Source of the DNA: Nitrospirota bacterium
GTDB taxonomy: Bacteria > Nitrospirota > UBA9217
Direction of reading: 5' to 3'
DNA: 64,000 nucleotides
Assembly: GCA_963740085.1 (NCBI GenBank)
Contig: CAVUCU010000004.1
Coordinates: 224,001-288,000 of the forward strand
A program made the translations under genes and the position numbers. The notes beneath the pieces are model-generated. The model saw only the letters and a program-made list of their open reading frames with translations. It had not been told where the DNA came from and did not search any database. Positions 26,981 to 48,425 of the stretch are shown here, one piece after another. How positions within the stretch are numbered: the stretch's first letter is position 1; every line of letters begins with the position of its first letter.

Positions 26981-27015
26981 TCCAAGATGCGAGTATCGTC
27001 TGAACGGAGGCAATC

Positions 27016-28495: not shown

Positions 28496-28507
28496 CGGAG
28501 GTCGTGA

Positions 28508-29777: not shown

Positions 29778-30269
29778 ATGAGGGATCAAAGGGAGCAAAC
29801 AGGGTCTTTGAAAGAGGCCGTGAAAAACCGACCGGTTTTAATTGCCGCGGGACTCATGATGATTGTGGGTCTGATCACCCAGAGCGGCTGCGTGAGAGTA
29901 AAACCCGTTGATCAGGATACAACTCATCAGCTGACTCCTGCGGAATCTGCGGGCATCGAGATCGTGAGGATCCATCCCTCAGTGGGTGGGCAGATGCTTG
30001 ATCTTCGATATCGCCTGATCGATGTGGAAAAGGCGAAACGCGCCATGAACCGGCAGGCAAAGATCTATCTAATTGATCAGGCAAGCGGTACGAAACTTCC
30101 GATCCCAAACATGGCAAAGGTCGGCAAACTGCTGCAGCGACCGGAACAGACCGGGGGAGACAAGATATTCTGGGTCTTTTTCAGCAATCCCGGGGGCATG
30201 GTCAAGACGGGAGCAAAGGTAACTCTGGTGATCGATGAGATCCGCATCAAGGATATCGTTGTTCAGTAA
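29778..30269 (+). CDS. Conserved-looking exported hypothetical protein (possible lipoprotein)
   Basis: Hydrophobic leader ending QSGC; beta-rich GIEIVR..LDLRYRLID..FFSNPG..VKTG.KVTLVI. Confidence 0.6.
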   Translation: MRDQREQTGSLKEAVKNRPVLIAAGLMMIVGLITQSGCVRVKPVDQDTTHQLTPAESAGIEIVRIHPSVGGQMLDLRYRLIDVEKAKRAMNRQAKIYLIDQASGTKLPIPNMAKVGKLLQRPEQTGGDKIFWVFFSNPGGMVKTGAKVTLVIDEIRIKDIVVQ

Positions 30270-31890
30270 TCGCAGTACCTTGAGCCGCAGATTGATCGTC
30301 GCGGTCGCATGCATGGCGGTCTTCTTCTCACCTGGGGCCAATGCATGGTGCGGGGAAATTGCTCAAGAGCTTCTTAAAGAAATAGAAAGCAATGGTCCAA
30401 TCCATGAGTATGCGGTCATTATCAAATTGAGGGGCGTCGTCGGCTACCAGTCGCTCAAGGCATCTGTCGAACAGATGGCTCGCCACGAGCGGGTAAAAAA
30501 AGTGGTCCAGGAAATCAAGGCTGCGACCGACAGATCGCAGCAGAATTTGCGGTCGCATCTCGTCAACCAGGAAACGCTTGGCAAGGTAAGGAACGTAAAG
30601 CACTTCTGGATAGTCAACGGAATAGCCGTAACAGCAACGCCGGAGGCCATAAAAGAACTGGCGTCGCGGGCTGATGTTGAGGAAATTGTGCCGGACAGGA
30701 TCATCACCCTCGGCGCACCGGCCGTTGCTTCCAGCGCGGCTCCTGCTGGATGGAACCTGGACAGGATCGGGGTCCATCCTCTCTGGAACGCGGGATACAC
30801 AGGGCAGGGCGTAGTGGTCGCCACCATGGATACGGGAGTTGATATCAATCAACCTGAACTTGCATCGAAATGGCGTGGAGGAGTGAACAGCTGGTTCGAT
30901 CCCAGCGGAGAACACGGGACCCCCGCTGATGTGAGCGGCCACGGGACCCAGACCATGGGCATCATATTGGCGGGGAATACAGTGGACCATCTCATCGGTG
31001 TTGCTCCTGATGCTAAATGGATTGCGGCCAAGATATTTAATGATGCAGGTGTATCTTTTTCCAGCATCACGCATCAGGCATTTCAGTGGGTCCTCGACCC
31101 TGACGGAGACCCGAATACGAACGACGCTCCCGATATTGTTAACTGCTCCTGGGACCTGAGCAGCAGCGGGACTGTCACCGTTGTGAACCTGGAGTTCCAG
31201 CCTGACGTTCAGGCACTTCAGGCAGCAGGCATTGCGGTCGTCTTTTCAGCGGGCAATGCCGGGCCGCTTTCAAATACTTCGGTCAGTCCGGCGAACTATC
31301 CGGAATCGTTCTCGGTTGGAATGACGGACAGTACGGACATGATAGACCCGCGGAGCAGCAGAGGGCCGTCGGCATTCGACGGAACATCTCTCTATCCGAC
31401 GGTGGTTGCCCCCGGGGCCGGTGTTACGACGACTGACCTCTGGTTCGGCTCAGCGGACCTGAGCACCGTAACGGTGAACGGGTCATCATTTTCCGCTCCC
31501 CACGTTGCGGGCGCAATGGCGCTGCTGCTGTCAAGCAACCCGACCCTGACTGCCGGGCAGATGGAGGACGCGATAAAGCCGACTGCCTGGGACCTCGGAA
31601 CTACGGGGCCTGACAATGATTATGGGTACGGATTTCTGGATGTAGAACGGGCGGCAAGACAATTGAATATTCTGCAGCCGGGCTCAGTCGGTGATGTGGA
31701 CGGCAACGGAGCGCTGGATCTGAATGACGTTTTAATTGATTTAAGGGCGGCGGTCGGGTTTCCGACGAGCACTGTTGAAATGGACAGGATCAAAGCCAGA
31801 GGTGATGTATATCCTCCCGGCGCGCCGGATAATATGATCACGCCGGCGGACGCGCTGACGCTTCTCCGCATGTACGTGGGGGCACACTAA
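30235..31890 (+). CDS. Subtilisin-like S8 serine protease with I9-like propeptide and C-terminal dockerin
   Basis: Triad motifs MDTGV, GHGTQTMG, GSSFSAPHVAG; oxyanion AGN; GDVDGNGALDLNDVL..GDVYPPGAPDNMITPADAL; start codon uncertain. Confidence 0.88.
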   Translation: MRSASRISLFSNRSTLSRRLIVAVACMAVFFSPGANAWCGEIAQELLKEIESNGPIHEYAVIIKLRGVVGYQSLKASVEQMARHERVKKVVQEIKAATDRSQQNLRSHLVNQETLGKVRNVKHFWIVNGIAVTATPEAIKELASRADVEEIVPDRIITLGAPAVASSAAPAGWNLDRIGVHPLWNAGYTGQGVVVATMDTGVDINQPELASKWRGGVNSWFDPSGEHGTPADVSGHGTQTMGIILAGNTVDHLIGVAPDAKWIAAKIFNDAGVSFSSITHQAFQWVLDPDGDPNTNDAPDIVNCSWDLSSSGTVTVVNLEFQPDVQALQAAGIAVVFSAGNAGPLSNTSVSPANYPESFSVGMTDSTDMIDPRSSRGPSAFDGTSLYPTVVAPGAGVTTTDLWFGSADLSTVTVNGSSFSAPHVAGAMALLLSSNPTLTAGQMEDAIKPTAWDLGTTGPDNDYGYGFLDVERAARQLNILQPGSVGDVDGNGALDLNDVLIDLRAAVGFPTSTVEMDRIKARGDVYPPGAPDNMITPADALTLLRMYVGAH

Positions 31891-31975
31891 GGGAATGATC
31901 CGTTGAAACGGTTAGTCTGCAAAACTGTTAAATGAGCAAATAAAATAATTTATCGCGATGAAGGAGGAACATCAA

Positions 31976-32809
31976 ATGAAAAAGAGATTCAGTGTTTACG
32001 TCATGATGTTTGCAGCAATTACGTTTCTGTTCGCAGCCTGCGGCCGTGATCATGGGGACAACGGAACGCCGGTCGATCTGACTAAAGCCTCAACAGTAAC
32101 CGTTACCTCGGACAAGAGGATCGCCCTGGCGAACGGCAGTGAAAATATAACCCTGACCGCGCTGGTGACCAACGCGAGCGGCAGTGCGCTGTCTGGAACA
32201 GCGATATCATTTGGGATCACGGCGGGAACAGGCACGTTACAAAACGCGGCTGCTACGACGGACGCATTGGGTAACGCTACGGTGCAAGTGAACAGGGGTC
32301 CCATTGCCGCCCCGCTGACAAAAGAGGATGTGGTCATCACTGCTACGGCCGATGGCGTTTCGGGTTCTAAAACGGTCAGGTTCATCAATCTGCCCGCCTC
32401 TGCAGCGATTGAAGTCGCGCTCACTAAAACGGTCTCGGACCTGGCGTGGTTGACATTCGACATCATCAGCGCTCCAACGCAAACGCCGCCAATATTCTTG
32501 CAATTGGCTGCCATAGGCTCCGCGAATACTCCGCCGTATGTTAATGGGGTAAATACCTTGACGTGGCAGGCTGACCCTACCGCTCCCACGTATGCGATCA
32601 TTACCTCTCTGATCCCGGGTTTCACTGCAACCGCTAATAGTGCTATCGTGGGAATTACGTATAACATCGATTCGACCATAAAAGAGCTGCCGGTCTTTTC
32701 AGTGGGGCCGAATCATATCACCGCCAATAATTCGGGCGGATTTCCCATACTCCCGACACTGAACCAGGTAGATATTTCTGCAACGACGGTCTTTGACACA
32801 GAATTATAG
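31976..32809 (+). CDS. Lipoprotein with Big_1 Ig-like domain and cohesin-like C-terminal domain (copy 1)
   Basis: Lipobox FAAC; ANG...TLTALVTNASG.....I.F..T....TTDALGNATV; C-terminal beta domain whose cohesin assignment is inferred. Confidence 0.65.
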   Translation: MKKRFSVYVMMFAAITFLFAACGRDHGDNGTPVDLTKASTVTVTSDKRIALANGSENITLTALVTNASGSALSGTAISFGITAGTGTLQNAAATTDALGNATVQVNRGPIAAPLTKEDVVITATADGVSGSKTVRFINLPASAAIEVALTKTVSDLAWLTFDIISAPTQTPPIFLQLAAIGSANTPPYVNGVNTLTWQADPTAPTYAIITSLIPGFTATANSAIVGITYNIDSTIKELPVFSVGPNHITANNSGGFPILPTLNQVDISATTVFDTEL

Positions 32810-32911
32810 TTACTCCCGGGTCGCGTACGCCGTCGCATGATCGGTCGACGGTGTGCGCTTCTCAGGGTTTTATTGCCATGTATTTTTTGTCCGGCTATTG
32901 GAGGTAGTATC

Positions 32912-34195
32912 TTGAAAATTAAGTCACTGTTCTTCGTTGTTTGCTTCTCGTTGTTTTTATCGTGCTGGCTGTCTCCGGAGGCTGTCGCGTCGCCCAGCGT
33001 GACCATTGCCCCCGCGTCCGACAGTGTTTATGCGGTTATGGGGAACGATTTTTCAGACGCCTCGGGCATGGATATCACCATTCGCTACGATCCCTCTGCG
33101 CTGGCCGCTCCCCAGGTCGTGCAAGGAGGTCTTATCGGCGGGGCCCTCATGGCTATCAATGCCTCAACACCGGGAATGATCCGCCTGGCGCTCGTCCGTG
33201 TTACGGCGATCAAAGGGTCTGGAGCGATCGCAACGATAACCTTTACCCGTTTGAAGAGCACCGGTGCGGACATCCTGTCCCTCGTTTCCTCGGCAATAAA
33301 CACTGCGGGCCAAAGCATCCCGGTAACGTCACAGGTGGTGAATTCCGTGAAGACAGCGGACAGCGGCGCATCAACAACGGACCAAAAAACCGGGCAATCG
33401 ACAGCAGGGACCTCTCCGTCGTCGGAGTCCGGAACTCCCGGTACAACGGCAACAGCGCCGACGGGAATAGCAGGGATAGTGGTTCCCTTGCCGGGCGCAC
33501 CCGCCTCCGAGGTCCAGAGCGCAAGTTCTTCAACGGGTCAGCCCGCTCCTGATGAACAGCAGCCCGCCACTGATGAGATCGTTTCCCCTGAAGCAGCCAA
33601 AGAATCACCAGGTGAAAAGGCCGGCAAACCGGAGCTCAAGAAAGTCAAGATGTTTCCCAGTGTTCTGGAAAAATTCAGGGATTTTAAGGGCGCGAAGACA
33701 CCTGAGGCACTTATGGCTTTGTTCGATGTGCGGGATAACAATCCGCAACAAGACCCGCCTATCGTCCTTTCGAACGGCAAGGCTACGGTTAAAATCGTCC
33801 TTGAACTCGATTCCCAGGGAAAGAATAACAATTTTCTGCTTGATGGCGCAAGCCTGGTTTCTCTGAAAAAAAAGGAGAAGCATTTCTGGACCGTGGAACT
33901 TTTGCCGGATTCGAGGACCTATGAAGCGACAGTCAGCGTGCCCCGGAACGATCAGTGGTCCGTTATCCCCTTGACCGTTGCCCCGCCCATGGATGTCAAC
34001 ATAGACCCATCCTCCAGCAGACTGACCGAAGCGGATTTTAAAATGTATCTCAAGGAAAAGGGGACCGCCAAGACCCCCCGTTTTGACCTGAACAAAGACG
34101 GACGGCGCGATTACATTGATGATTATATTTTTACGGCCAATTATATCGTTCAACGTGACAGTCATTCGAAGAAGGAGATGAAGGTCCGAAAGTAA
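32912..34195 (+). CDS. Secreted cohesin-domain protein with S/T/P linker and C-terminal EF-hand/dockerin-like loop
   Basis: GAGG RBS plus TTG; SGMDITIRYDPSAL...GMIRLALV....GSGAIATITF; FDLNKDGRRDYIDD. Confidence 0.75.
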   Translation: MKIKSLFFVVCFSLFLSCWLSPEAVASPSVTIAPASDSVYAVMGNDFSDASGMDITIRYDPSALAAPQVVQGGLIGGALMAINASTPGMIRLALVRVTAIKGSGAIATITFTRLKSTGADILSLVSSAINTAGQSIPVTSQVVNSVKTADSGASTTDQKTGQSTAGTSPSSESGTPGTTATAPTGIAGIVVPLPGAPASEVQSASSSTGQPAPDEQQPATDEIVSPEAAKESPGEKAGKPELKKVKMFPSVLEKFRDFKGAKTPEALMALFDVRDNNPQQDPPIVLSNGKATVKIVLELDSQGKNNNFLLDGASLVSLKKKEKHFWTVELLPDSRTYEATVSVPRNDQWSVIPLTVAPPMDVNIDPSSSRLTEADFKMYLKEKGTAKTPRFDLNKDGRRDYIDDYIFTANYIVQRDSHSKKEMKVRK

Positions 34196-34523
34196 CATTT
34201 GTCCCGCGTGCCGAAAACCGTAACGAGGGGGTGGGACATCATGGGAATTGAACTACTCTGGAGCCTGTTATGCTCACCCTGTCGAATTTCGGCAGGGTCA
34301 CGAGTGGTTCCCATAATCTTTTGCAGAGAAGGGGTCTGTTGAGGTCATATTTTATCATGGAGTTGCTTCCGATCTGCTTTGTTGCCCCTCATGCTATTTC
34401 CATAGATTGCGATCTGATATTTCTTCCAAAATTCACGGGCAGCATCACGGTATTATTTATAAAGAAGATCATCGATCAGGACGCAATTCCTGGTCCAGGT
34501 CTTCTTGCCTGTCGGGGTGGCTC

Positions 34524-35111
34524 ATGATAATAAAAACGGTCCGGATCTTTGTCTGCATGGTCGCGATACTGTTCATGCCATTGACCGGGGCCCTGAATCG
34601 TGCGCTGGCTGATGAACAGGGTTATCAGCGAAGCGTAGAGCAATACACAGTACCCGATGTCGTTCTCGTGAACCAGAACGGAGCGAAGGTCCGTCTTAAG
34701 GACCTTCTGCAAACCGACACGCCGGTGGTCCTGGATTTCATATTCGGGACCTGTACGACCATCTGTCCCATCCTTTCGGCCGGGTACGTCAACTTGCAGC
34801 ATAAGCTCGGCCCGGATTCCCGGGCGATCCGGCTCGTTTCGATCTCCATCGATCCGGAACATGATACACCGAAGGTCATGAACGCGTATCTGAAACGGTT
34901 TCGTGCGAAGCCGGGATGGGATTTTCTGACCGGCTCCCGTGAAGATATCGACAAGGTGATGACGGCGTTCGGCGCTTACATTCAGAACAAGATGTCGCAT
35001 TACCCGTTGACGCTGATCCGCTCCCCTGAGGACGGCTCATGGATCAGGCTCTTCGGCCTCATGAGCACCGCGGAATTTATGAACGAGGTCCAGAAGGTAA
35101 AGAAGAAATGA
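34524..35111 (+). CDS. SCO/SenC copper chaperone (copy 1)
   Basis: LVNQNG, DFIFGTCTTICP (CxxxC), SISIDPEHDTP, W.FLTG, conserved His (MSHYP). Confidence 0.9.
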   Translation: MIIKTVRIFVCMVAILFMPLTGALNRALADEQGYQRSVEQYTVPDVVLVNQNGAKVRLKDLLQTDTPVVLDFIFGTCTTICPILSAGYVNLQHKLGPDSRAIRLVSISIDPEHDTPKVMNAYLKRFRAKPGWDFLTGSREDIDKVMTAFGAYIQNKMSHYPLTLIRSPEDGSWIRLFGLMSTAEFMNEVQKVKKK

Positions 35112-36815
35112 TCGGTGAACGGGGGAAAAAGAAGCATCGCGGTGAGCAGATCGTCCTGCACGCAGGGGTCCTTTGCCTGACACTTCTTTTCTGTGCAGCC
35201 TTCGCTCTTGCAGCCGAAAAACCAGGTGCTGATGCCGCCCATTCGCAGCGCGAGATCCTTCAACTGGGGGAGCGGATGTATCGCGAGGGGCTTCTGCCCT
35301 CCGGAGAGCCGATGCAGGCATTTGTAAAAGGAGACCTCCCCGTTTCGGGGACGACCTTTACCTGTGTAACCTGTCATCAGCGCAGCGGGCTTGGATCGAC
35401 CGAAGGGGGTGTTGATACGCCTGCCACGAACGGCCCCGAACTCTTGAAGCCATTTCAGATGCGCTATGCACGTTACGGTATGAACAAATCAACCTATTTC
35501 CAAATACCCATCGAGCGGCCGGCATATACCGATGAAACACTGGCAGAAGCGATCCGGGGCGGCGTCGATTCCCGGGGGCGGGTCCTCGATTATGTCATGC
35601 CTCGTTACCTGCTTGATGATGAGGACATGGCGATCATGATCTTCTACCTGAAGTCACTTTCAACGCATATTTCACCCGGCATTTCAGACACGACCTTCAA
35701 GTTTGCGACCGTCATGACGGATGACGTCAGCCAGGAAGACCGCGATGCGGAGCTCGCCCCTTTGGTAAATTTTATCAATATCAGGAACAATCATTCAGCA
35801 TTTTTAAAAAAACTATCCAACAGCGGAAAACTGCGTATGGCTGGAAATTTGATGCCTCCCCCCACACAGGCGATATCGTTATCGATATGGTTGTTGAAAG
35901 GTCCACCGGAAACGTGGCGCAGCCAGTTGGAGGAGTACAATCGCAAGGAGCCGGTATTCGCCCTGATCGGCGGAATAACAAAAGGGGAATGGAAGCCGAT
36001 CCACCAGTTCAGTGAGGACAACCACATCCCGTGTCTTTTTCCCAACACCGATTTTCCGGTGATTTCACGGACCGACTGGTACACCTATGTACCTGTCAAA
36101 AGGGTACTACCAGGAGGGCGAGGCTGCTGCCCACTATCTCAACAACAAGGGGGAGCTCTTGAAGGGCGGGCCGATCGTCCAGATCGTTCGCGATTCGCGC
36201 GAGGGGCGGGCGCTCTCAATGGGATTTCAGGAGACCTGGCGGAATCTCGGGCATGAAGCGTTGGTGACGCTCATCCTGAAACCGGGGGAAAAACTGACCG
36301 AGGACGTTATACAGAAATTGCTGGCAAAGAAGAAGGCCAGAGCTGTCGTCCTCTGGGATGGCTCCGCGGCGCCGTCGGAGCTGGAAACGCTGGCAACGGT
36401 CAAGAACAGGCCGGAGATGGTTTTCGTTTCTTCAAGCTATCTCGGCAAGGATCTGTGGTCGCTGAAAGAACAGGTCCGCGATTTCACTTACGTAACGTAT
36501 CCTTTCAGGTTGCAGGACAAGCTTGATCAATGGGACTCCTCGCTGGTCCTTTCAGCCAACATAACGAAAGAAGCGAATGCAGCATATTCCATTCAAGAGA
36601 TATTGACCCAGGCACTCATAGATATGAAAGGTAATTATTACCGCGACAATTTTCTGGATGTTATCGGGATGATGGATGATCTGGAGGTCCCCTTGTATGA
36701 ACGCCTCAGTTTCGGCCCGGGACAGCGCTACGCCTCGAAGGGGTGTTACATCGTTCAGCTCTCAAAGGGAGAAAAACCCGAACTCGTCAGGAAAAGTGAC
36801 TGGGTAATTCATTGA
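35108..36815 (+). CDS. Monoheme cytochrome c fused to a periplasmic-binding-protein-like domain (copy 1); +1 indel at about 36087
   Basis: CVTCH, VMPRY (possible axial Met); continues in ORF 36087..36815; paralogue 2 reads accttgtac where this copy reads acctatgtac. Confidence 0.78.
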
Positions 36816-36828
36816 AAGGAGGTCAGGA

Positions 36829-37407
36829 GTGATGCGGAGCAAATTCCTGGGCATGGTGCCGGTTCTGGTCTTTTTTACGATGATGCTTATCGGGAGACCG
36901 GCTGTCGCCGCGGGGGAATCCTACGAGCGGACCCTGGAAAGTTATACTGTGCCGGATGTTGTGCTGGTTAATCAGGATGGGGTCAAGGTTCACCTGAGGG
37001 AACTCCTGCAGTCGAAGGATCCGGTCATTCTGGATTTCATCTTCGGCACCTGCACGACCATCTGCCCGATATTGTCGTCAAGTTTCGCCAACCTGCAGAA
37101 TAAGCTGGGCGCCGCTTCCCGGAAAGTTCATCTGGTATCCATAACCATTGATCCGGAGCACGACTCACCAAGGGTCATGAAGGAGTACCTGAAGCGATAT
37201 CGCGCAAAACCCGGATGGGATTTTTTGACCGGATCGCGCTCGGATATTGACAAGGTGATGGCTGCATTCAACGCCTCTATTCCCAGCAAGATGTCCCATT
37301 ATCCGCTGACACTGATCCATTCTCCGGGAGACGGCAAATGGATCAGGATCTTCGGGCTGATGGGGAGCGCTGAATTCATGAGCGAGTGCCGGAAGGTGGG
37401 GATATGA
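36829..37407 (+). CDS. SCO/SenC copper chaperone (copy 2)
   Basis: DFIFGTCTTICP, ITIDPEHDSP, MSHYP. Confidence 0.9.
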   Translation: MMRSKFLGMVPVLVFFTMMLIGRPAVAAGESYERTLESYTVPDVVLVNQDGVKVHLRELLQSKDPVILDFIFGTCTTICPILSSSFANLQNKLGAASRKVHLVSITIDPEHDSPRVMKEYLKRYRAKPGWDFLTGSRSDIDKVMAAFNASIPSKMSHYPLTLIHSPGDGKWIRIFGLMGSAEFMSECRKVGI

Positions 37408-39086
37408 TGAAAGGTCCGAACAGTAACCGGCTGGGCAATTGTATTATACTGTTCGCAGTTCTCTGCGTGGCGGCCCTTCAGCTTTTCGTAGTGCTGCCAA
37501 ACTCGTTCGGCGAACCGCTTAAGCCTTCTCTTTCGCCGGAAGAGAAGCTTCGGTTGGGAGAACGGATGTATCGAGAAGGTGTCCTGCCATCGGGTGAACC
37601 GATGCAGGCATTCGTAAAAGGAGACGTCCCTGTTCCTGGGACTGCTTTTACCTGTGTAAGTTGTCATCTGCGGAGCGGGCTCGGATCTTTTGAAGGGGGC
37701 GTTTACACGCCTGCCACGAACGGGGCTAAACTCTTCAATCCGCTCCAACTGACCTATGTACGATTCGACCGGCCGGCGTACACCGATAAAACACTGGCTG
37801 ACGCGATCCGGGGTGGCGTCGATCCCCGGGGACGGGTCCTCGATTATGTCATGCCTCGTTACCTGCTGGATGATGAGGACATGGCGATCATGATATTCTA
37901 CCTGAAGTCGCTCTCGTCACAATTTTCACCCGGGATCTCGGAGACGAACCTTCATTTGGCAACGGTCATGACCGATGATGTGAGCCAGAAAGATCGTGAT
38001 GCGATGTTTGTGTCTTTGCTGGGTATCATTGGTTCCAGGAACCAATATGCAAGGTTGAAAAGCCGGCAGAGCGTCCTCGGCAAAGGGCAATTAGTCCTGA
38101 TGTCGGATGACATGATGAACTCATTTGACCAAATTATATCGCTCTCGCCCTGGCTCCTGAAAGGTCCACCGGAGACGTGGCGCAGCCAGTTGGAGGAGTA
38201 CAATCGCAAGGAGCCGGTATTCGCCCTGATCGGCGGAATAACAAAAGGGGAATGGAAACCGATCCACCAGTTCAGTGAGGACAACCACATCCCGTGTCTT
38301 TTTCCCAACACCGATTTTCCGGTAATTTCACGGACCGACTGGTACACCTTGTACCTTTCAAAAGGGTACTACCAGGAGGGCGAGGCTGCTGCCCACTATC
38401 TCAACAACAAGGGGGAGCTCTTGAAGGGCGGGCCGATCGTCCAGATCGTTCGCGATTCGCGCGAGGGGCGGGCGCTCTCAATGGGATTTCAGGAGACCTG
38501 GCGGGATCTCGGGCATGAAGCGTTGGTGACGCTCATCCTGAAGCCGGGGGAAAAACTGACCAAGGATGTCAAACAGCTGCTGGCAAAGGACAAGCCTGGA
38601 GCTGTCGTCCTCTGGGATGGCTCCGCGGCGCCGTCGGAGCTGGAAACGCTGGCAACGGTCAAGAACAGGCCGGAGATGGTTTTCGTTTCTTCGAGCTATC
38701 TCGGCAAGGATCTGTGGTCGCTGAAAGAACAGGTCCGCGACTTCACTTACATAACGTATCCTTTCAGATTGCCGCCGTCGCCCACGGAGATGATAAATCC
38801 CTCTGACCCGTGGTACTATTTAAAAGGAAATACAACGAAAGAAGCTAATCAGGCGTATATCATCTCTCAAGTATTCAACATGGCGATCATGGATATGAGA
38901 AGGAATTATTACCGCGACAATTTTCTCGACGTTATCGGGATGATACCGGATACGGAGGTCCCCTTGTATGAACACATCAGTTTCGGTCCTGGACAGCGCT
39001 ACGTCTCGAAGGGATGTTATATCGTTCAGCTCTCAAAGGGAGAAAAACCCGTACTCATCAGAAAAAGTGACTGGGTAATTCAGTAG
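37404..39086 (+). CDS. Monoheme cytochrome c plus periplasmic-binding-protein-like domain (copy 2)
   Basis: CVSCH, VMPRY, PVFALIGG, SFGPGQRY.SKGCYIVQL; ATGA overlap with SCO. Confidence 0.8.
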   Translation: MMKGPNSNRLGNCIILFAVLCVAALQLFVVLPNSFGEPLKPSLSPEEKLRLGERMYREGVLPSGEPMQAFVKGDVPVPGTAFTCVSCHLRSGLGSFEGGVYTPATNGAKLFNPLQLTYVRFDRPAYTDKTLADAIRGGVDPRGRVLDYVMPRYLLDDEDMAIMIFYLKSLSSQFSPGISETNLHLATVMTDDVSQKDRDAMFVSLLGIIGSRNQYARLKSRQSVLGKGQLVLMSDDMMNSFDQIISLSPWLLKGPPETWRSQLEEYNRKEPVFALIGGITKGEWKPIHQFSEDNHIPCLFPNTDFPVISRTDWYTLYLSKGYYQEGEAAAHYLNNKGELLKGGPIVQIVRDSREGRALSMGFQETWRDLGHEALVTLILKPGEKLTKDVKQLLAKDKPGAVVLWDGSAAPSELETLATVKNRPEMVFVSSSYLGKDLWSLKEQVRDFTYITYPFRLPPSPTEMINPSDPWYYLKGNTTKEANQAYIISQVFNMAIMDMRRNYYRDNFLDVIGMIPDTEVPLYEHISFGPGQRYVSKGCYIVQLSKGEKPVLIRKSDWVIQ

Positions 39087-39135
39087 TAAAGAAACTGCCC
39101 ACCGCTCGTCCGGACAAACAATTTTGGAGAGAAAG

Positions 39136-39867
39136 ATGAACAGGGTTGTCTTAATGGTAATGATCTTTTTAGCAATCGCATCTGCGGCGCAGGCTAAAAA
39201 CCAGTTTTACGGTGATCAAGAGCTTAGTATGCTGAGTGAAGGGTACAAGCTGTTCATTAGCGACAACATTATTAATACCGTTGATAAAATAGAGCGCGGC
39301 GCAGACGCTCGCACCGCTTACTGTACCGGCGCTGATGAAAAAACTGCAAAGCATATCGGCGATATAAGCGTGGTGCGCTCGGATAACCGTTTGCGGATCA
39401 GTGGGAATACAAAGATATCCTACTCTGCTGCTTGCAACACGTATTACTCTGTTGTTGAACGTTTAAAGACTGCTGATGATATCAGGAGGCTCTGGTTGTT
39501 ATTTGCCGATTCTGGAACGGACGGTTATGCGGCAGAAACCATTAAAAAACACGGTGTAAATGAAGACCCCAGTGCTTTAATTGAGTTGAGGCGGTTGGAA
39601 GTTGTTTCCAAGTATATCGAATTTTTTACAAACAATAAAGACTGGAAACTTACGGAGTATACCTTTCTGTCGCAAGCCTTTAAGGCACGGAAAGATAAAC
39701 CGTTATCTCCTGTCTTTGCACAATTCATCTCGGCGTTGTTAACAGGTGATGCGGAGAAGGCGTTCCGAGTCCTAAAATCGATTGATCTTGATGATCTTGG
39801 CAGCCGTTTTATTCCACCGGTTTCAAGTGACGGCCTGAAGCCCAGCGGGGCAGACCCGCACGAGTAG
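39136..39867 (+). CDS. Secreted hypothetical protein (lower GC than flanks)
   Basis: GGAG RBS; signal peptide ending AAQA. Confidence 0.6.
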   Translation: MNRVVLMVMIFLAIASAAQAKNQFYGDQELSMLSEGYKLFISDNIINTVDKIERGADARTAYCTGADEKTAKHIGDISVVRSDNRLRISGNTKISYSAACNTYYSVVERLKTADDIRRLWLLFADSGTDGYAAETIKKHGVNEDPSALIELRRLEVVSKYIEFFTNNKDWKLTEYTFLSQAFKARKDKPLSPVFAQFISALLTGDAEKAFRVLKSIDLDDLGSRFIPPVSSDGLKPSGADPHE

Positions 39868-39931
39868 CATGCCGGGAGTGCAACCTATAGTTCACCTCTC
39901 CGACAACCCGCATCTCCTCATGAAAGGATAT

Positions 39932-40336
39932 ATGTCGATTTTTCGCAGCTCTGTCAGATTTCTTATATTGTCGGTGGTTGTTTCGGCCCTTGCCCTGAGC
40001 CTTGCTTCAGGAGCTGGGGTGGCACAGGTCGCGTCACAATACGACGCGACGCTCAAGCAAATGCTTGATGCGGTCCAGGAGAAATCATACGAGCCGTTCG
40101 TGGCCAGAGGAGACCTGAGATTCAAAAACGGTTTTACCACGACGATGTTCGATGAACTGTCCCGGCAGCTCGCGCCGAGGCTTCGGCAGGGTTATTCCAT
40201 GACATTCCTTACCACCCTGCGCCAGCGGGACTACCTGGTCTATGTCTGGAAACTTGCGTTTAAGGACGGCAAGGATGACTTTCTTGTCAACATGGCTATT
40301 AAAGACGGAAAAATCACCGGCTTTATTACCCGGTGA
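39932..40336 (+). CDS. Exported hypothetical protein
   Basis: AAGGA RBS; hydrophobic leader; small alpha/beta domain. Confidence 0.6.
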   Translation: MSIFRSSVRFLILSVVVSALALSLASGAGVAQVASQYDATLKQMLDAVQEKSYEPFVARGDLRFKNGFTTTMFDELSRQLAPRLRQGYSMTFLTTLRQRDYLVYVWKLAFKDGKDDFLVNMAIKDGKITGFITR

Positions 40337-40572
40337 TGGTGATTAAGTACCGGTCCCATCCGATATTCGTCCGCTCCGCTGGATGTCTGGAACTTCAAAA
40401 GGTCGGAATTTGAAGGTATCCTGACGCTCAGTTCATCTAAAAAATGAGATGCATTGGGTTTAAATGCATACCTGGTTAAAAAAGACCATTCAAAATGGAC
40501 CTGTTCCCTTTCCTCATCTCTTTCCTTCCGTATAACGCATTGTAATCATAAATGTCTTGAATAGGCTTTAGT

Positions 40573-40589
40573 TGGGCATTACTCTTGCA
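40573..40589 (+). promoter_or_regulatory. Sigma-54 (-24/-12) promoter of the second MCO/dockerin unit
   Basis: tgGGcattactcttGCa = GG-N10-GC. Confidence 0.65.
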
Positions 40590-40683
40590 AACAATAAGCC
40601 GGATAAAAGAAGATTAAAGGTCCGCCGATGCCAATAACCTTCAACCAAGTCTCAGGTGTGACGGCTTGAGAAAGGAAATTCCT

Positions 40684-41301
40684 ATGAAACTGAGATTGAT
40701 GATCGTCCTGGGCATTGTACTCCTGGCCTGTCAGGCTGTCGCCGGAGAGAAGATTGCTCTTAAGACGCAAAAGGATATTGAGAACTACAATGCCGGGATA
40801 AGGATCGCAAGGTCCTTAAGGCAGCAGGGGGGCGAGATCAACCTGGATATCGTGATCCAGGGAATGAAGGACGAGTTAACAGGCGAAGGGCACATTTTGA
40901 CGGAAGACAATGTCTCGGAAACCCTGGTCGCGTCGCATAACGAAATGAAGCAGGTGTGCCGGGTTATCGAAGATTCGGAACTCTACGAGGCAATATGTAA
41001 CAGAACTGATCCGCAGGCACCAGCATCATCTCAAGCCCAGGTGCAGAAGCAGAGATCTGATGAGGAACAAACTTTTGCCGCCCTGTTTGCCTCTACTCCA
41101 GCAGCTCCCCGGAGAATTGCTTCGCAAACGGGCGTATTATCTCAGGCGCTTATGCAGAGACAGGCGCCTGTTCAGTACCAAACCTTTGCAGACCTGCAAG
41201 CTGCACAGGCGCAAGTGAACGATGAGCCGGTTAAGATCGAGAGGAGCGACCTTGCCAGAAGATTTGGCGAGGCGTGGGTCAAAACGCAACCGCATCAGTG
41301 A
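40684..41301 (+). CDS. Secreted protein with FKBP N-terminal dimerisation domain only (no PPIase domain)
   Basis: KTQKDIENYNAGIRIARSL......NLDIVIQGMKD; Q/A-rich tail instead of FKBP_C. Confidence 0.65.
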   Translation: MKLRLMIVLGIVLLACQAVAGEKIALKTQKDIENYNAGIRIARSLRQQGGEINLDIVIQGMKDELTGEGHILTEDNVSETLVASHNEMKQVCRVIEDSELYEAICNRTDPQAPASSQAQVQKQRSDEEQTFAALFASTPAAPRRIASQTGVLSQALMQRQAPVQYQTFADLQAAQAQVNDEPVKIERSDLARRFGEAWVKTQPHQ

Positions 41302-41365
41302 AACACCGAAAATATATTATAAATCAGAAAAAAGAGACGAAAGATGATACCGGCAGACTAAAATG

Positions 41366-41500
41366 TTGAGAATCTCCTAAAAAGTCGAATTTAACCGCAG
41401 AGCCGCAGAGTGGCGCCGAGGAAACCTCTTAATCTTTAAGATCTATTTCTCCGCGTCTCAGAGTCTCGGCGGTAGATTTTTCTTTTTACGACTTCATCAA
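41366..41500. mobile_element. MITE-like element with inner 9-bp-repeat palindrome
   Basis: ttgagaatctcctaaaaag ... ctttttacgacttcatcaa terminal IRs; inner accgcagagccgcagag ... tctcagagtctcggcggt. Confidence 0.65.
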
Positions 41501-41605
41501 ATATTTGACGATAAACAGACGGAACATTCGAAGAAGAGTGACGCGCATGCACATGACCGCGGGTTTGGCAGCGCAGGCAAACAGATATGAAAGGAGAAGT
41601 AAAAT

Positions 41606-41927
41606 ATGAGCGGACTCAAATTTAAGTTGAGAAACAGCTGTAAGCCTTTATTGTTGCTGCCATTCATATTGGCAGTAGCCGCCCTTTTTTTGGGGAGGGA
41701 TCAATGTAACGAGCGCGGGAGCGGATCAATCGGGGAGACATCCGAAAAATGCCGCTGAATATCACGCGATCCGGGACCCCAAAGTTGACCCGAATTTATC
41801 CCCGGCTCAACGGGCGCGCGTGCAACGGGACGCTGCGATCAAGAATAGAGAAAATACCAGGAAGTTCATTCAGAATATTATGGCAGGGAAAGAATCGGCA
41901 TCTTCCCAGGGAGGGAGTGCAAAATGA
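41606..41927 (+). CDS. Small secreted protein (one indel near the T/G runs at 41685-41700), translationally coupled to the large MCO
   Basis: AAGGAG RBS; MSGLKFKLRNSCKPLLLLPFILAVAALF leader; downstream frame ends SSQGGSAK-TGA overlapping ATG 41924. Confidence 0.5.
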
Positions 41928-44900
41928 ATAAGCGAAATTTGTCTTTATGCGCAATAGTGATCTTTGCGATAGCCCTGCTGGGCGCACCCGCGGCCATGGC
42001 CGCCTGCAATTACACGGCGGCGGAGGCAGCACTGTATCCGCCGGGAATAGGATTCAATCCAGCCGTCTGTTACAATGTGCCGAACTTCTCGCAAAGCCCG
42101 AACATCAGGAAGTTCGTTGACAGTCTCCCTGGTCTGGGGGCAGCCAACGCGAACAATCTCGGGCAGTATATCCCGATTGCCGTTCCGGACACGACATCGT
42201 ATCCGGGGTCGGATTATTATGAGATCGGTCTCAAACAGTACACGAAGAAGATGAACACCGACCTCCCGGCCACCACGCTCAGGGGCTATTACCAGAAAGA
42301 CGGCACTGATCATTCCTCGCAGTATCTGGGCGTGGCTATCATCGCCAAGCGCAACCGTCCGGTGCGCGTCAAGTATTTTAACGAGCTCCCCATCAGCTCT
42401 CTTACCGATACAACTGCCGGCAGGCTTTTCCTGCCTGTGGACACCACCTTGATGGGTGCAGGCATTGGGCCAGATGGAGTACATTCTTTCTCGCAAAACC
42501 GTGCAAGCTGGCATCTCCACGGTGGCCGCACCCCGTGGATCAGCGACGGCACGCCGCACCAGTGGCTTACCCCGGCTGGTGATCCGTCAATACCCCCGAA
42601 AGGCGCGAGTTTCCAGAACGTGCCTGACATGGTTAACGGCTCCGGAACCACGTGCATCGGAGGCGCCAAGTGCTTCACCCCTAATGCGGGCGACGGCATC
42701 GGGACGCTCTACTATTCAAACGATCAGAGCGCCCGCCTGATGTTCTACCACGACCATGCCCTTGGAATAACTCGACTGAACGTCTATGCCGGTCTTGCCG
42801 CGCCCTATCTCCTGACCAGCCAGGTCGAGGAAGACCTGATCTCGGGGACGGATGTTTCGGGCGGCAACCCGGCGGCAAAACAGATATTGCCCGACCAGGG
42901 AACTCCAAATGGCGTCTATAGATATGGAATCCCTCTGGTTATCCAGGACAAATCATTCGTGAATGACGCAACCACGCCTCCGGCCCCGGGCTTCCCGGCA
43001 ACGACTTCCGGCTACGTACCTATGCCGACCACCCTTAGTACTGATCCTCTCTGGGCAAAGTATGTTGGGACCGGCGGAGGGAACCTCTGGATGCCCCACG
43101 AGTATATGCCGATCGAGAACATCTTTGATCCGACCGGTAACACACCCAACGGCAGATGGGACTATGCTCCTTTCCTGAATCCGCCTTTGATCCCCACGCA
43201 TCCCATGCTCCCCACTCCGACCACTGTACCGGAATCATTCGGAGACACCGTGACGGTCAACGGCACTGTTTTCCCCTACCTCGAGCTGCCGCCGGATGCC
43301 ATCCGTTTCCGGATACTGAGCGTCGGCAACGACCGCGGGTTCAACCTGATGTGGTTCAAGGCTGATCCCCTGCGGATAAACGTGACGAACGGAGGGTCCA
43401 ATTATACGAATCCAACGGTGTTTATGAGCGGAAATGTAGGCCTCTATTCGACTGCAACCGCAATTGTCTCTCCCGGCACCATATCAGCGATCGATGTTGC
43501 AGGCTCGGCGCATTACATCTTTCCTCCTACGGTTAAGCTCTCGGGCGGAGGAGGAACCTGTGCTTCAGTAATAGCATCAGTTGTCTCCAATTCGAGCGGT
43601 GTAATTACCGTATCGGCCCAGGGGTGCAGCGGTTTCACGTCTGCGCCAAATGTTACGTATCACTGGCGGTGGAGGAGGCACCTATACATCCGCAACAGCG
43701 TCGATAATTCCCAAAGGCGTCATTACGGGAATCGTGGTTACGGGCGCAACGGGCTACCGGTCGGATATGCCTGCTCCGACGGTGACCATTTCGGATTCAA
43801 CCGGCACGGGCGCCACAGCCGTCGCCTTCGTCAACACGGAAGTAAAGATGGTTGATGCACTCCCGAACAATGGGTGGCTGAATGGGCCGTGGGATGGGCG
43901 CGACGGCGGCGTCCCTGATCCGGCCATGTCAGGCCCGTCATGGGTCCAGATCGGCAACGAGTCCGGGTTCCTGGCCCAGGCCGCGGTATGGCCGCCCCAA
44001 CCGATCGTTTACGAACAACTTCGCCAGAGCATTCCCACGCTTGGCGTCACGTACCACTCGCTCCTTCTGCAGCCGGCAATGCGCGCGGACGTGATCGTTG
44101 ACTTCAGCAGTTACAAGGACGGCGACGTGCTCATCCTGTACAACGATGGGCCCGCGCCCATGCCGGGGTACTGGCCGCTCAACGACTACTACACGGACGA
44201 CCCGGACCAGACCGGAATAGGCGCAGCTCCGACGACACCGCCCGGCTTCGGCCCCAACACCCGCACCATCATGCAGGTCCGGATCAAGGGGACCAAGACG
44301 TCGGCCTATACATTCAACCTTGCAGAGCTCCAGGCAGCAGTTGCCGAAGGCCTTCGCAGCGGACCAGGACAAACCCATTGTTCCCCAGTTGGCCTATAAC
44401 GACGCTTACCCGGGATTTGCAACGTTTGACGCATACGCAAGTAATAAAGACACAACCCTGAACCTTACCGGTTCGCCTCAGGGGGTATCAAGGATCCTTA
44501 CCGCAGTAGGCGGCAACGGCTATACGACGCCTCCCACGGTCCAGGTTCTGGCCACGGGCGCTGGCTCGGGTGCAACGGGCACGGCAGGTCTCAATCCTTA
44601 CGGCGGTGCCATTCTCCTCACGGCAGGTGCCGGCTACACCTCGCCTCCTGCGGTTACGATAGGGACTCCGCTCAGTACCTACACCACCCCAACGTTTAAC
44701 CCTCGTCCCGGTGTGATTCAGGTAACCGCCTTGGGCTCTACAACGATCTCGGGCGGTATGGTTACCGCCATCGCGATCGATGAGCCCGGCTCGAACTACA
44801 ACACCAACGTTTTGGACACCGCGGCAACCCCCACATGCATCATTGCGCCACCAACGTGCACGCCGCTCGGTACGGCAATTTGCGATACGGCCACCTGCCA

Positions 44901-46457
44901 GTCGTTCATCTCAGTGGCGGGTTCCGTCGGCTCCATTCAGGTTACCACCGCCGGCTCGGGCTACACGTCTGAACCTACGGTCTTCCTGAATGGCGGAGGA
45001 GGTACGGGCGCCACGGCAGATGCCTTGCTGGCCGGGGCGACGATAATGACCGGCAAGAACATAACAGAGGGTTTTGACCCCGACTACGGGCGGTTGGACA
45101 TCAGGCTCGGCTCCACGCCGAACCCGCTCACGCCCAGCATAGGCAACGGCCAGGTTATCGGCATCGCGCGCTACATCGACCCGCCGACCGAGTTCCTGAA
45201 CGATGGAGAGGTCATCCTGTGGCGTTTCGCGCATCTGGGAGTTGACTCCCATGCCCTGCATTTCCACCTGTTCGACATGCAGGTGGTGAACCATGTTGAC
45301 TATACCAACGTCGTAAAGCCGCCGTACCCGGACGAACTCGGTTGGAGGGAAACCATCAGGACCAACCCGATGGAAGACATCATCGTGGCGATAAGACCGA
45401 GGACGATGGCGCTCCCGTTCCCGGTACCGAACAGCAGCCGGCTTCTGGACGTGACGAACGCCGCTGGATGTCAACACGAACTTCCTTCCCATACCGCCTC
45501 CGCCCGGCATAGCAGCGGTACCGCAGATCATCAATGCGGTGACTGACTTCGGTTGGGAATACGTCTGGCATTGCCACCTCCTGGCGCATGAAGAGAATGA
45601 CATGATGCGGCCGATGTGCTTGTTGCCTCCGTCTGCCGTACCGAATGCGCCTGGTCTCGCGGCCGGAGGTGTAGTCGCGTCGCCGGAGCAAGTCAGCTCT
45701 CACTTGGACGCATTACTGCTCGACACCTGCCAATGCGCCGGCCGCATTTCGTCATCCAACGGTGCACGGGCAATGGTTGCACTCCTGCGACGACCATAGC
45801 AACATTGATTGACAGAAACTTGCGCACCTATATCGACACTACGGTTGCTGCAGGCACGACGTATGGATATCGTATCCATGCGTTCAACAACTCGGGCAGT
45901 TCGGCGATTCGACCACCCGATCCGTAACAACAGCTGACCTATAGCATTCCCACCGTATCCATAACAGCACCGGCAAGCGGGGCAACGTATACCGCTCCAG
46001 CTACGGTCGCGTTGGCCGCTTCCGCGACGTCCGGAGGAACCGGAGACCATCACCAAGGTGGAGTTCTTCAATGGTTCGAATCTGATACAAAGCGTCACAA
46101 CAGCACCCTATAACGCGAGCTGGGCGAGTGTGCCTGCCGGTGTATATGGAGCCGTGACCGCCAAGGTCACCAACAGCCAGGGAGCAACTGCTGTCTCTAC
46201 TCCGATATCGGTCATTGTAGCGCCGATCATAACGACCTGCGGTCGTAGCCCCCACGGGCGACGTCAGCGGCAACGGCTTAATTGACCTGACCGATGTCTT
46301 GCTTGTCCTGCGTGCAGCATTGGGTTTACCGGACACCACCGTTCCTTTGACCACGATCATAGCCAAGGGCGATGTATATCCTCCAGGCGCGCCGGATGGC
46401 GTGATCACCATGGCAGATGCGCTGACGGTTCTGCAAATGTATGTGTCCACACATTAA
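41924..46457 (+). CDS. Large OmpB/MofA/CotA-like multicopper oxidase with Gly/Thr-rich inserts, FN3, Ig-like domain and C-terminal dockerin; multiple indels
   Basis: WHLHGG, FYHDH, HALHFHL, WHCHLLAHEENDMM in successive frames (breaks near 43658, 44340, 45457, 45700-45750, 45910, 46040, 46235); last frame GDVSGNGLIDLTDVL..GDVYPPGAPDGVITMADAL..STH-stop. Confidence 0.8.
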
Positions 46458-46483
46458 GGGAGTGCAACACGACAATTAATATC

Positions 46484-46525
46484 TATCAGCATGGCACAGT
46501 GAAAAGATCACGTGCCATGCTGATA
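46484..46525. promoter_or_regulatory. Intergenic stem-loop without U-tract
   Basis: tatcagcatggcac...gtgccatgctgata 14-bp perfect stem. Confidence 0.7.
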
Positions 46526-46551
46526 ACATAACGCGGTTTAAATATGGAGGA

Positions 46552-47382
46552 ATGAAAATGAATACAAGATCAGGTGGTTATATCATATTAGCTGCGGTCA
46601 TCTTTCTTCTGTTCTCTGGCTGCGGCGGTAGCAGCGGGGGTGGGGGGGGTGCTGCAGCCTCAACAACTACCCTGACATCGGACAAGGCGATCGCGCTGGC
46701 GAACGGCAATGATCCCGTCAGCCCGGAACGAGTTACCTTTACCGCAACATCCACGCCGGGGAGTCCGGTATCATTTGTGATCACCGCGGGAACGGGTTCA
46801 CTCGTCAATGCTGATACGGCGACGAATGCCTCCGGTATTGCGACGGTGCAGCTCCAAAGAAACCCAATTACCGGTGTGAACACGAGAGAAGATATAACGG
46901 TCACAGCCACTGCCGCCGGCGCTTCGGCTGCCAAGACTGTCAGATTCATCGACCTGCCGTCTCAGGCCAATATATCGATCGCGCTCAACCGGGTGATAAC
47001 GGACCTGGGCGCCCTGACATTCGACCTTGTAAGTTCGCCGACTCAGTCGGCGCCGCAGTTCATGCTGGCGACACCTTTAGGCGTTGCAATCACGTTTCCG
47101 CGCATAGGTCCTCTTGGCCCTGGCACACAAAATACCTACACCATTGCGGTGGGCACCGGGAAATATTCGCTCGTCACAACAGTGAACCCGGGTATCACCA
47201 CGACAGTGAATGGTCCTCTCGTGGGATTGACCTATAGCATTGATCCGACCATCAAGTCGCTTCCGACCTTTGCCGTAGGAACGACACCGCAGGCAACAAA
47301 TTCTTTAGCCTCAGGCGCACTTCCTATCGCGGTGTCACAAGCAGATTTCGTTGCGACGACGGTTTTCGACACGGATAATTAA
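46552..47382 (+). CDS. Lipoprotein with Big_1 Ig-like domain and cohesin-like C-terminal domain (copy 2)
   Basis: Lipobox FSGC; paralogue of 31976..32809 (TSDK.IALANG, KTVRFI.LP, DL..LTFD, YxID.TIK.LP.F.VG, ATTVFDT). Confidence 0.7.
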   Translation: MKMNTRSGGYIILAAVIFLLFSGCGGSSGGGGGAAASTTTLTSDKAIALANGNDPVSPERVTFTATSTPGSPVSFVITAGTGSLVNADTATNASGIATVQLQRNPITGVNTREDITVTATAAGASAAKTVRFIDLPSQANISIALNRVITDLGALTFDLVSSPTQSAPQFMLATPLGVAITFPRIGPLGPGTQNTYTIAVGTGKYSLVTTVNPGITTTVNGPLVGLTYSIDPTIKSLPTFAVGTTPQATNSLASGALPIAVSQADFVATTVFDTDN

Positions 47383-47389
47383 CGAGGGG

Positions 47390-47505
47390 TTGCCGTGGCC
47401 CCGTCAATGGATGTCGACATCAACCTCTTTGCCGGCAGGTTGATGGATGCGGATTTCGAGATTTATTTGAAAAACCGGGGACCGTCGAGGTCCCCGGTTT
47501 TTTTC
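47390..47505 (+). pseudogene. Decayed fragment of the cohesin-protein C-terminal region
   Basis: Translates as VAPSMDVDINLFAGRLMDADFEIYLK versus VAPPMDVNIDPSSSRLTEADFKMYLK at about 33975-34055. Confidence 0.7.
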
Positions 47506-47837
47506 GGCGGGATTTATCCCGAAAAACAATTGGTCCCGGGTAAACAATGCCGCCTGATGTAATTCACCTGGGGTAGCGCTTCGTGCATGGACTGCATCTC
47601 GAAACACACCGTACGGACAAAAACCGCTGAACAATCCCGCAGCAGACCTCCCTTGCCCCGCTGGAAGCAATGAATATCCATATTGTGAGAAGTCTTCGTT
47701 TTGTGATATAGTGCCCCTAAGGGATAGTTTCCACAAGTCCTTAACATTCTCAATATAATTCAGACTTGAAACGTTCAGAACATCGCTTGCATTACAATGG
47801 GGAATTATTTCTGCAGTTCAGCGGTCGAGGTATTATC

Positions 47838-48425
47838 ATGAGATCAATCATAGCGCGGGTACTTGTCTGCTTGGTCGCTCTATTCTTGTTGCCATTGACC
47901 GGGACCCTGGATCGTGCGCTGGCTGAAGAACAGGGTTATCAGCGAAGCGTAGAGCAATACACGGTGCCCGATGTCGTTCTCGTGAACCAGAACGGAGCGA
48001 AGGTCCGTCTTAAGGACCTTCTGCAAACCGACACGCCGGTGGTCCTGGATTTCATATTCGGGACCTGCACGACCATCTGTCCGATCCTCTCGGCCGGGTA
48101 CGTCAACCTGCAGCATAAGCTCGGCCCGGATTCCCGGGCGATCCGGCTCGTTTCGATCTCCATCGATCCGGAACATGATACCCCGAAGGTCATGAACGCA
48201 TATCTGAAACGGTTTCGTGCGAAGCCGGGATGGGATTTTCTGACCGGCTCCCGTGAAGATATCGACAAGGTGATGACGGCGTTCGGCGCTTACATTCAGA
48301 ACAAGATGTCGCATTACCCGCTGACGCTGATCCGCTCCCCCCAGGACGGCTCATGGATCAGGCTCTTCGGCCTCATGAGCACCGCGGAATTTATGAACGA
48401 GGTCCAGAAGGTAAAGAATAAATGA
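47838..48425 (+). CDS. SCO/SenC copper chaperone (copy 3, nearly identical to copy 1)
   Basis: CTTIC and MSHYP; DNA nearly identical to 34580-35110. Confidence 0.9.
   Translation: MRSIIARVLVCLVALFLLPLTGTLDRALAEEQGYQRSVEQYTVPDVVLVNQNGAKVRLKDLLQTDTPVVLDFIFGTCTTICPILSAGYVNLQHKLGPDSRAIRLVSISIDPEHDTPKVMNAYLKRFRAKPGWDFLTGSREDIDKVMTAFGAYIQNKMSHYPLTLIRSPQDGSWIRLFGLMSTAEFMNEVQKVKNK

Follow-up and report, generated by a model that had tools for sequence, protein, structure and literature searches.

Dockerin-bearing enzymes and adjoining lipoproteins with a predicted cohesin fold in a Nitrospirota genome

Which proteins could receive the dockerins carried by a protease and by multicopper oxidases (MCOs) in a bacterium of the phylum Nitrospirota? 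The locus that raises this question lies in the window, by which we mean the whole stretch of DNA analysed (64,000 nucleotides, G000:C4:224001-288000), in a genome (G000) of 3.46 Mb and 7 contigs. Two genes of the window that end in dockerins of the same subtype, those of an S8 subtilase and of a large MCO, are each followed by the gene of a lipoprotein with a Big_1 domain and a C-terminal domain (C-domain) predicted to fold like a cohesin (lipoproteins 1 and 2 in Table 1). In the reading that we prefer, and to which we give an even chance, the enzyme and the adjoining lipoprotein would constitute a two-gene tethering module, with the dockerin as plug and the cohesin-fold domain as socket.

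Four C-terminal dockerin-like modules are present in the window. As read from alignments, each consists of two repeats of a calcium loop plus a helix, the calcium loops being known here from sequence alone. Repeat 1 has the canonical loop D.[DNS].[DN]G.....D. In repeat 2, the first Asp, then [DN][GN], and then the last Asp are kept, with an insertion in the loop of about 7 residues in subtype B, 12 in subtype A, and 11 in a third subtype found elsewhere in the genome (see below). The two subtypes that a first-pass annotation of this DNA had distinguished are borne out. The modules at the end of the S8 protease and of the large MCO region (subtype B) share GDVYPPGAPD..IT.ADALT.L.MYV..H and are 60% identical to each other. 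Those of the 1712-aa protein and of MCO subunit C (subtype A), which are 43% identical to each other, have a separate type of second repeat (AD..., P..G.P.GNG, L.DVL..L..AT). Identity between A and B modules is 26-37%. With Pfam Dockerin_1 (PF00404, curated cut-off 22.9 bits), the module of subunit C scores over the cut-off (E 4.5e-9, 36.8 bits), and those of the large MCO (E 1.4e-4, 22.4 bits) and of the 1712-aa protein (E 2.7e-4, 21.5 bits) just under it. The S8 module has no Dockerin_1 match at E<=10; only a custom hidden Markov model (HMM) and alignment to the MCO module reveal it as a dockerin. With the custom HMM, dockerins are found in 6 of the 46,661 six-frame open reading frames (ORFs) of G000, namely the four modules of the window and two of the third subtype (GDVAPL...PDG; 53% identity between the two). 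Dockerins are thus rare in the genome, which speaks against an adjacency by chance.

Both subtype-B modules are followed on the same strand by Big_1 lipoprotein genes, as the first-pass annotation had stated, and the two lipoproteins are paralogues (43% identity, E 7e-53). Pattern reading gives the lipoboxes LFAAC and LFSGC after a hydrophobic stretch, with a Cys (Cys28 in lipoprotein 1) that is nearly invariant in 31 members of the family. The family is small: a search of 5.8 billion clusters gave 30 proteins, and one of 1.84 billion gave 50 representatives at E<=0.001. Its members carry between zero and three Big_1 domains and, after these, a conserved domain some 140 residues long. Big_1 occurs in 19 of 37 scanned representatives, which are those that remain of the 50 when nine fragments, a repeat protein of 1759 aa, and three representatives with Pfam domains already listed are set aside.

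The C-domain is predicted to fold like a cohesin, as a nine-stranded beta-sandwich superimposable on solved cohesins. The AlphaFold model of lipoprotein 1 has a pLDDT of 87.5 at full length and of 78.5 for the C-domain alone. The latter was modelled separately because the matches of a Foldseek search with the whole model were dominated by the Big_1 domain. When the C-domain model was compared with 48,161 PDB chains by a structure search other than Foldseek, the top 21 matches were all cohesins (Z 9.1-6.3), the best being a cohesin of Archaeoglobus fulgidus (2xdh_A; Z 9.1, rmsd 3.5, 113 residues); the first non-cohesin has Z 5.3. The top ranks in Foldseek are also nearly all cohesins, with weak scores (best E-value 7.9e-3). 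With the full-length model, the rows that map to residues 143-283 are cohesins in 14 of 14 cases (Z 10.2-8.8). Cohesins come first, therefore, in two independent structure searches and with two models. The first-pass annotation had named a C-domain without cohesin fold as a refutation of its proposal, and the predicted models do not bear this refutation out.

The adjacency is conserved in other genomes. Ten related loci were fetched; one (L007) starts at the match, so that nine have upstream sequence, and nine have downstream sequence. A subtype-B dockerin gene stands directly upstream of the lipoprotein gene in all nine evaluable loci (eight S8, one MCO-type). In a genome of a different genus (G030), the lipoproteins are only 34-36% identical to those of the window. 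There, the 3/3 lipoprotein genes with upstream sequence come after dockerin genes, and a fourth starts at a contig end. The partner genes in G030 code for a CCP_MauG protein (795 aa), a protein of the animal-haem-peroxidase/RTX kind (1301 aa or longer), and a Big_9 protein (876 aa). The pairing, for which the first-pass annotation had suggested statistics across genomes, is found with unrelated enzyme classes: the partner genes (S8, MCO, CCP_MauG, An_peroxidase, Big_9) have only the dockerin in common and their catalytic parts are unrelated. Copy numbers agree as well, with two dockerins of B type and two Big_1-family lipoproteins in G000, one dockerin of this type and one lipoprotein in G047, and four dockerins of this type and four lipoproteins plus one fragment in G030. 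In a sample of the phylum, the C-domain profile matches 4 of 401 genomes, one of them weakly (8.7e-4). The dockerins of G030 (L018 = G030:C203; L027 = G030:C157) are on two di-haem CCP_MauG proteins, a haem peroxidase with RTX, and a Big_9/cadherin-like protein, and some of the paired lipoproteins there are only about 165 aa long and have no Big_1 stalk.

Within the window, the two adjacencies that had been counted separately are both present, but they go back to one segmental duplication and not to two events. DNA similarity between the copies starts at the dockerin, not in the catalytic parts, and continues through the stop codon into the lipoprotein gene. The duplication takes in the SCO1 and cytochrome c-periplasmic-binding-protein (PBP) genes (repeats D1-D6, up to 91% identical to cassette 1). 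Right after lipoprotein 2, the stretch 47383-47500 is 47% identical (E 3e-11) to aa 379-416 of the cohesin protein encoded at 32837 in cassette 1. The ancestral cassette, as reconstructed from these repeats, is dockerin B, lipoprotein, cohesin protein, SCO1, and cytochrome c-PBP fusion.

The large MCO does carry a subtype-B dockerin, as claimed earlier, but its gene is not one open frame in this assembly. Compared by tblastn with an intact 1349-aa paralogue elsewhere in G000, it runs through frames 2,3,1,1,2,1 (five changes or more), and a 1-base insertion relative to L010 puts the dockerin piece in another frame than the piece before it. Other genes have similar breaks. MCO subunit B, compared by tblastn with its 489-aa orthologue in L001, is in frame 1 over 27079-28071 and in frame 2 over 28064-28492; the first cytochrome c-binding-protein gene is frame-broken near 36087-36166 (tblastn); and a small lipoprotein gene of a second family (G000:C4:471774-472243) is interrupted by stops. 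Since frame changes and stops affect several otherwise conserved genes, assembly indels are as likely as decay.

The tether proposal builds on the distinct subtypes of dockerin, on a C-domain predicted to fold as a cohesin, on an adjacency that is conserved, and on the shared ancestry of the cassettes. The S8 protease or the large MCO would be exported via a signal peptide. The calcium-loop dockerin at its C-terminus would bind physically, presumably with calcium and with selectivity between the subtypes, to the cohesin-fold head of the neighbouring lipoprotein. The Big_1 domain, which probably acts as a stalk, would connect this head to the lipid anchor. The enzyme would then be kept at the cell envelope, whether on the cell surface or on the outer membrane's periplasmic leaflet. 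The periplasm is the usual site of di-haem peroxidases, SCO1, and binding proteins, and the tether may therefore act there and not on the surface. Dockerin and lipoprotein would travel as a cassette, which enzyme genes of unrelated kinds would have acquired at their 3′ ends.

Several points weigh against this proposal. Neither C-domain matches Pfam Cohesin (PF00963) at E<=10, and this family matches 0/37 family representatives at E<=0.01. The comparison of the C-domain with the neighbouring Pfam cohesin by hhalign gives a probability of 0.4%, and the C-domain profile has no match among PDB sequences; the link to cohesins therefore comes from predicted structure. A common fold is no proof of a common function. 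The loci are all from one bacterial family, and L001, L004, L007, and L008 have nearly the same sequence. As orthologues from close kin, they overstate independence in the counts, which speak for conservation and not for independent origins. With a frame-broken large MCO in the assembly, the MCO/lipoprotein pair may not be functional. Finally, the Pfam-recognisable cohesin one gene further in the same cassette could be the real receptor. A complex prediction from the C-domain alignment A5 and the dockerin alignment A7, run without controls, gave scores of 0.21 and 0.18, with the mark at 0.32, and counts neither in favour of binding nor against it.

That further cohesin (Pfam, E 2.7e-6) belongs to a protein (gene at 32837/32912) that has a signal peptide. 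A linker rich in Ser, Thr, and Pro follows the cohesin, then a domain without family, and at the C-terminus two EF-hand-like loops. From its sequence, the protein could be a cohesin-X-dockerin adaptor with a scaffoldin-like layout. The C-terminal loops (33968-34192 in the window; L018:12952-13176) have a conserved FDLN.DG.R.Y.DD.IFTANY motif, with helices. The C-terminus of the G030 orthologue matches Dockerin_1 under the cut-off (6.4e-4, 20.3 bits) and EF-hand_1 (6e-5), and that of the window protein has no Pfam match to either family. Other cohesins occur nearby. A TPR + STN + secretin protein (G000:C4:201454-203940; L030:184-2538), about 20 kb upstream of the window, carries a Pfam cohesin at its C-terminus (Cohesin 1e-5; Secretin 1.2e-42) and is another candidate receptor. 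With such a socket, a channel in the outer membrane could retain dockerin proteins on their way out of the cell. An open frame of 3093 aa, about 4 kb beyond the window end, contains a weak match to Pfam cohesin (E 0.216, 13 bits; G000:C4:292308-292589).

The layout of the cohesin protein allows a hierarchical wiring, as in cellulosomes, with the enzyme dockerin on the cohesin of this adaptor and the dockerin-like end of the adaptor on the cohesin-fold anchor of the lipoprotein. The gene order S8, lipoprotein, cohesin protein is kept in 9/9 related loci with downstream sequence and is found also after the Big_9 gene pair of G030. The protein is built like an adaptor scaffoldin, and it has no conserved lipobox Cys (this Cys is missing from the L002 and L003 orthologues), so that it would need an anchor. 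However, lipoprotein genes match enzyme genes one to one, unlike the gene of the cohesin protein, which is absent after both the CCP_MauG pair and the peroxidase pair of G030 and of which only a remnant is left after lipoprotein 2 of the window. The C-terminus of the adaptor is also at most weakly dockerin-like, as the Pfam scores above indicate. We consider this wiring rather improbable. Slightly less probable still is that the cohesin-like beta-sandwich does not bind dockerins and does its neighbour enzyme some other service (maturation, inhibition, export, or substrate binding), with an adjacency due to a shared operon. The C-domain is without sequence similarity to any cohesin, and beta-sandwich folds are reused widely (a carbohydrate-binding module, 2ylk_A, is at Foldseek rank 20). 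On the other hand, cohesins stand clearly above all other folds in the non-Foldseek structure search, and an enzyme-specific service is unlikely since the partners are alike only in their dockerin.

The first-pass annotation had gone further and proposed a strict code, in which the lipoproteins are the sole receptors of subtype B, and subtype A docks on the cohesin encoded at 32912 or on one encoded elsewhere. The subtypes are indeed distinct: a profile made from subtype-B and G030 dockerins does not find subtype A of G047 at E<=0.01. There are also other cohesins in the genome, such as that of the secretin. But the gene of the cohesin protein accompanies the subtype-B cassette, and the protein is present in G030 (97% complete), where the subtype-A profile gives only weak cross-hits (E 3e-4 or worse), its strong matches being confined to G000 and G047. 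The docking of subtype A on this cohesin is thus not upheld. A code based simply on subtype is too narrow as well: two G030 lipoproteins, near-identical by eye, follow dockerins with a short and a long second loop, and a third subtype has its own lipoprotein family. We regard the strict code as very improbable, and the tethering of each subtype-B enzyme by its adjoining lipoprotein as the better account.

The third subtype extends the pattern. Both of its dockerin genes in G000 are followed by genes for small lipoproteins of a second family (about 150-180 aa; for example G000:C1:646531-647058, L028:132-659:-), one of which is the gene broken by stops. This family is present in 36 of the 401 genomes of the phylum sample and in 28/63 genomes of the window's own family. 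Among 25 loci (L036-L060; the best locus from each of 25 genomes), a dockerin-ending gene (HMM E<=0.001) is directly upstream of the lipoprotein in 20. Among the five others, no upstream dockerin was found in L038, L041, L058, and L060, and the sequence of L051 extends only about 200 bases upstream. For the second family, 11 of 30 Atlas matches are in cohesin clusters (score 0.92), hhalign against the cohesin alignment gives a probability of 17.9%, 1/23 members matches Pfam Cohesin (E 0.011), and there is no match among PDB sequences. As judged from these comparisons, its assignment as a cohesin is a lead only.

Four of the six dockerin genes of G000 are followed by a lipoprotein of either family, one by an MCO subunit, and one, that of subunit C, by a 163-aa protein. 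The contrast in downstream lipoprotein that the first-pass annotation had drawn between the subtypes is therefore only partly kept: subtype B is always followed by its lipoprotein, but subunit C, of subtype A, is also followed by a small Cys protein. The 163-aa protein is conserved in L001 (60% identity). It has no Pfam or NCBIfam match, gives no cohesin lead in the Atlas search, and has an hhalign probability <0.3% with both cohesin-type alignments. Its nearest Atlas clusters are unnamed proteins, mostly of Pseudomonadota (score 0.96). For this reason, its role may be accessory to the oxidase operon and not that of a socket.

With these subtypes in one genome, the tether proposal can be widened. 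Each dockerin enzyme would have one private lipoprotein socket, at least three pairs that do not cross-react would coexist per cell, and the cassette could be grafted onto any enzyme gene. In these pairs, the Big_1 lipoprotein with its hidden cohesin would serve subtype B, the second family the GDVAPL...PDG subtype, and another partner subtype A. Since the cargo comprises copper oxidases, haem peroxidases, and a protease, beside SCO1 copper chaperones, the result would be an envelope-bound oxidative machine, perhaps one that oxidises metals or humic matter. Taken as a whole, this wider reading is possible and somewhat unlikely.

The features are listed in Table 1. All genes of the 20-50 kb region are on the + strand, as read from the ORF list and Pfam. 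Three adjacent MCO subunits of about 410-490 aa are mutually 27-29% identical (tblastn), with a dockerin on the last only, and this operon (25682-29749) is conserved in L001. The three SCO1/SenC and cytochrome c-like/Peripla_BP_6 fusion pairs have 64-97% DNA identity between copies. Promoter and terminator scans gave site numbers no higher than in shuffled sequence, except for the promoter-like sites of the second scanned region, where the excess is modest (8 vs. 4.2 expected from shuffling, sd 2.0). These scans found no site between any dockerin gene and its lipoprotein gene.

Table 1. Features of the dockerin-lipoprotein region (positions in the window)
Feature	Position	Strand	Evidence
1712-aa secreted beta-helix/SdrD_B protein, C-terminal subtype-A dockerin (about 25386-25613)	20478..25616	+	ORF; Pfam SdrD_B, Beta_helix; alignments A2, A9
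MCO subunit, first of three paralogues, without dockerin	25682..26980	+	Pfam Cu-oxidase_3, Cu-oxidase_2, Cu-oxidase
MCO subunit B, one frame change near 28064-28071	27016..28492	+	tblastn
MCO subunit C, C-terminal subtype-A dockerin (29522-29746)	28508..29749	+	Pfam Dockerin_1, Cu-oxidase_3
163-aa small protein, hydrophobic N-terminus and Cys, directly after subunit C	29778..30269	+	ORF
S8 subtilase, I9 propeptide, C-terminal subtype-B dockerin (31672-31887)	30235..31890	+	Pfam Peptidase_S8 2.8e-47
Lipoprotein 1: signal peptide with Cys, Big_1 stalk aa 47-143, predicted cohesin-fold C-domain aa 145-283 (nt 32390-32806)	31958/31976..32809	+	Big_1 8.9e-13; AlphaFold
Secreted cohesin protein, probable start 32912: cohesin, linker, domain without family, dockerin-like end	32837..34195	+	Pfam Cohesin 2.7e-6
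Two tandem SCO1 and cytochrome c-periplasmic-binding-protein gene pairs	34407..39086	+	Pfam SCO1-SenC, Peripla_BP_6; repeats; tblastn
Large MCO, at least 6 frame pieces, subtype-B dockerin piece at end (46233-46454)	41924..46457	+	stop-to-stop ORFs; tblastn
Lipoprotein 2: Big_1 and predicted cohesin-fold C-domain (nt 46963-47379)	46552..47382	+	Big_1 4.5e-5; in alignments A3, A4, A5
Remnant of the C-terminal part of the cohesin protein; remainder deleted in cassette 2	47383..47500	+	E 3e-11; DNA alignment
Third SCO1 and cytochrome c-binding-protein pair, closes cassette 2	47766..50155	+	direct repeats D1-D6, tblastn

If the hidden cohesin binds the neighbouring dockerin, sequence censuses of cohesin-dockerin systems overlook whole receptor families, and many "orphan" dockerins of non-cellulolytic bacteria may have a partner next door. 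There would then be a natural rule for cognate pairs, plug gene followed by socket gene, and protein-assembly engineering could draw several pairs, presumably orthogonal, from a single organism. In Nitrospirota, copper and haem oxidoreductases would be kept at the envelope in this way.

How does this compare with known systems? Only single cohesins were found and glycoside hydrolases are absent among the dockerin proteins scanned; on this basis the system does not count as a cellulosome. Non-cellulosomal cohesin and dockerin modules were reportedly surveyed by Peer and colleagues in 2009. The likeness to such modules (a solved example is 2xdh) lies in single cohesins and dockerins on proteins unrelated to cellulose breakdown. 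In the present case, however, the cohesin is undetectable in sequence and belongs to a Big_1-stalked lipoprotein, whose gene comes right after that of the presumed dockerin partner. Cohesins and dockerins outside cellulosomes are described as widespread, with unknown roles, and methane-oxidising archaea (ANME), which do not degrade cellulose, have many dockerin and cohesin proteins, with a proposed role at the cell surface that is itself stated to be unknown (PMC9012536, PMC5244752). The passages concerned in these papers deal with domain counts and scaffoldin-like proteins and do not describe an enzyme gene with its own lipoprotein cohesin. Among the titles and abstract openings of the literature, we found no description of lipoprotein cohesins beside dockerin enzymes in Nitrospirota.

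The first domain of the lipoprotein resembles D00-D0 of intimin (full model; Z 15.2, rmsd 1.9, 99 residues, 31% identity). Unlike intimin and invasin, the lipoprotein has neither a beta-barrel anchor nor a lectin-like tip. Its NCBIfam scan gives only weak intimin matches, on the Big_1 part, and membership in the intimin family is ruled out (24 bits vs. a cut-off of 1400-2050).

The single-cohesin anchors OlpA and OlpC of Clostridium thermocellum (PDB 3ul4, 4dh2) are the closest solved analogues. In these, a cell-bound single cohesin receives the dockerin of one enzyme, an arrangement that is here predicted only. Both structures are among the structural matches, with Z 8.5 and 7.8 for the C-domain and Z 9.5 and 8.9 for the full model. 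OlpA and OlpC are held on the Gram-positive wall by SLH domains. By contrast, the lipoproteins described here would have a lipid anchor in a bacterium with two membranes, no SLH domain appears in the Pfam scan, and the cargo is a protease or an oxidase, not a glycoside hydrolase. What is new here is a socket invisible to profiles, several subtypes in one genome, a movable cassette of plug and socket, and a cargo made up mostly of copper and haem oxidoreductases.

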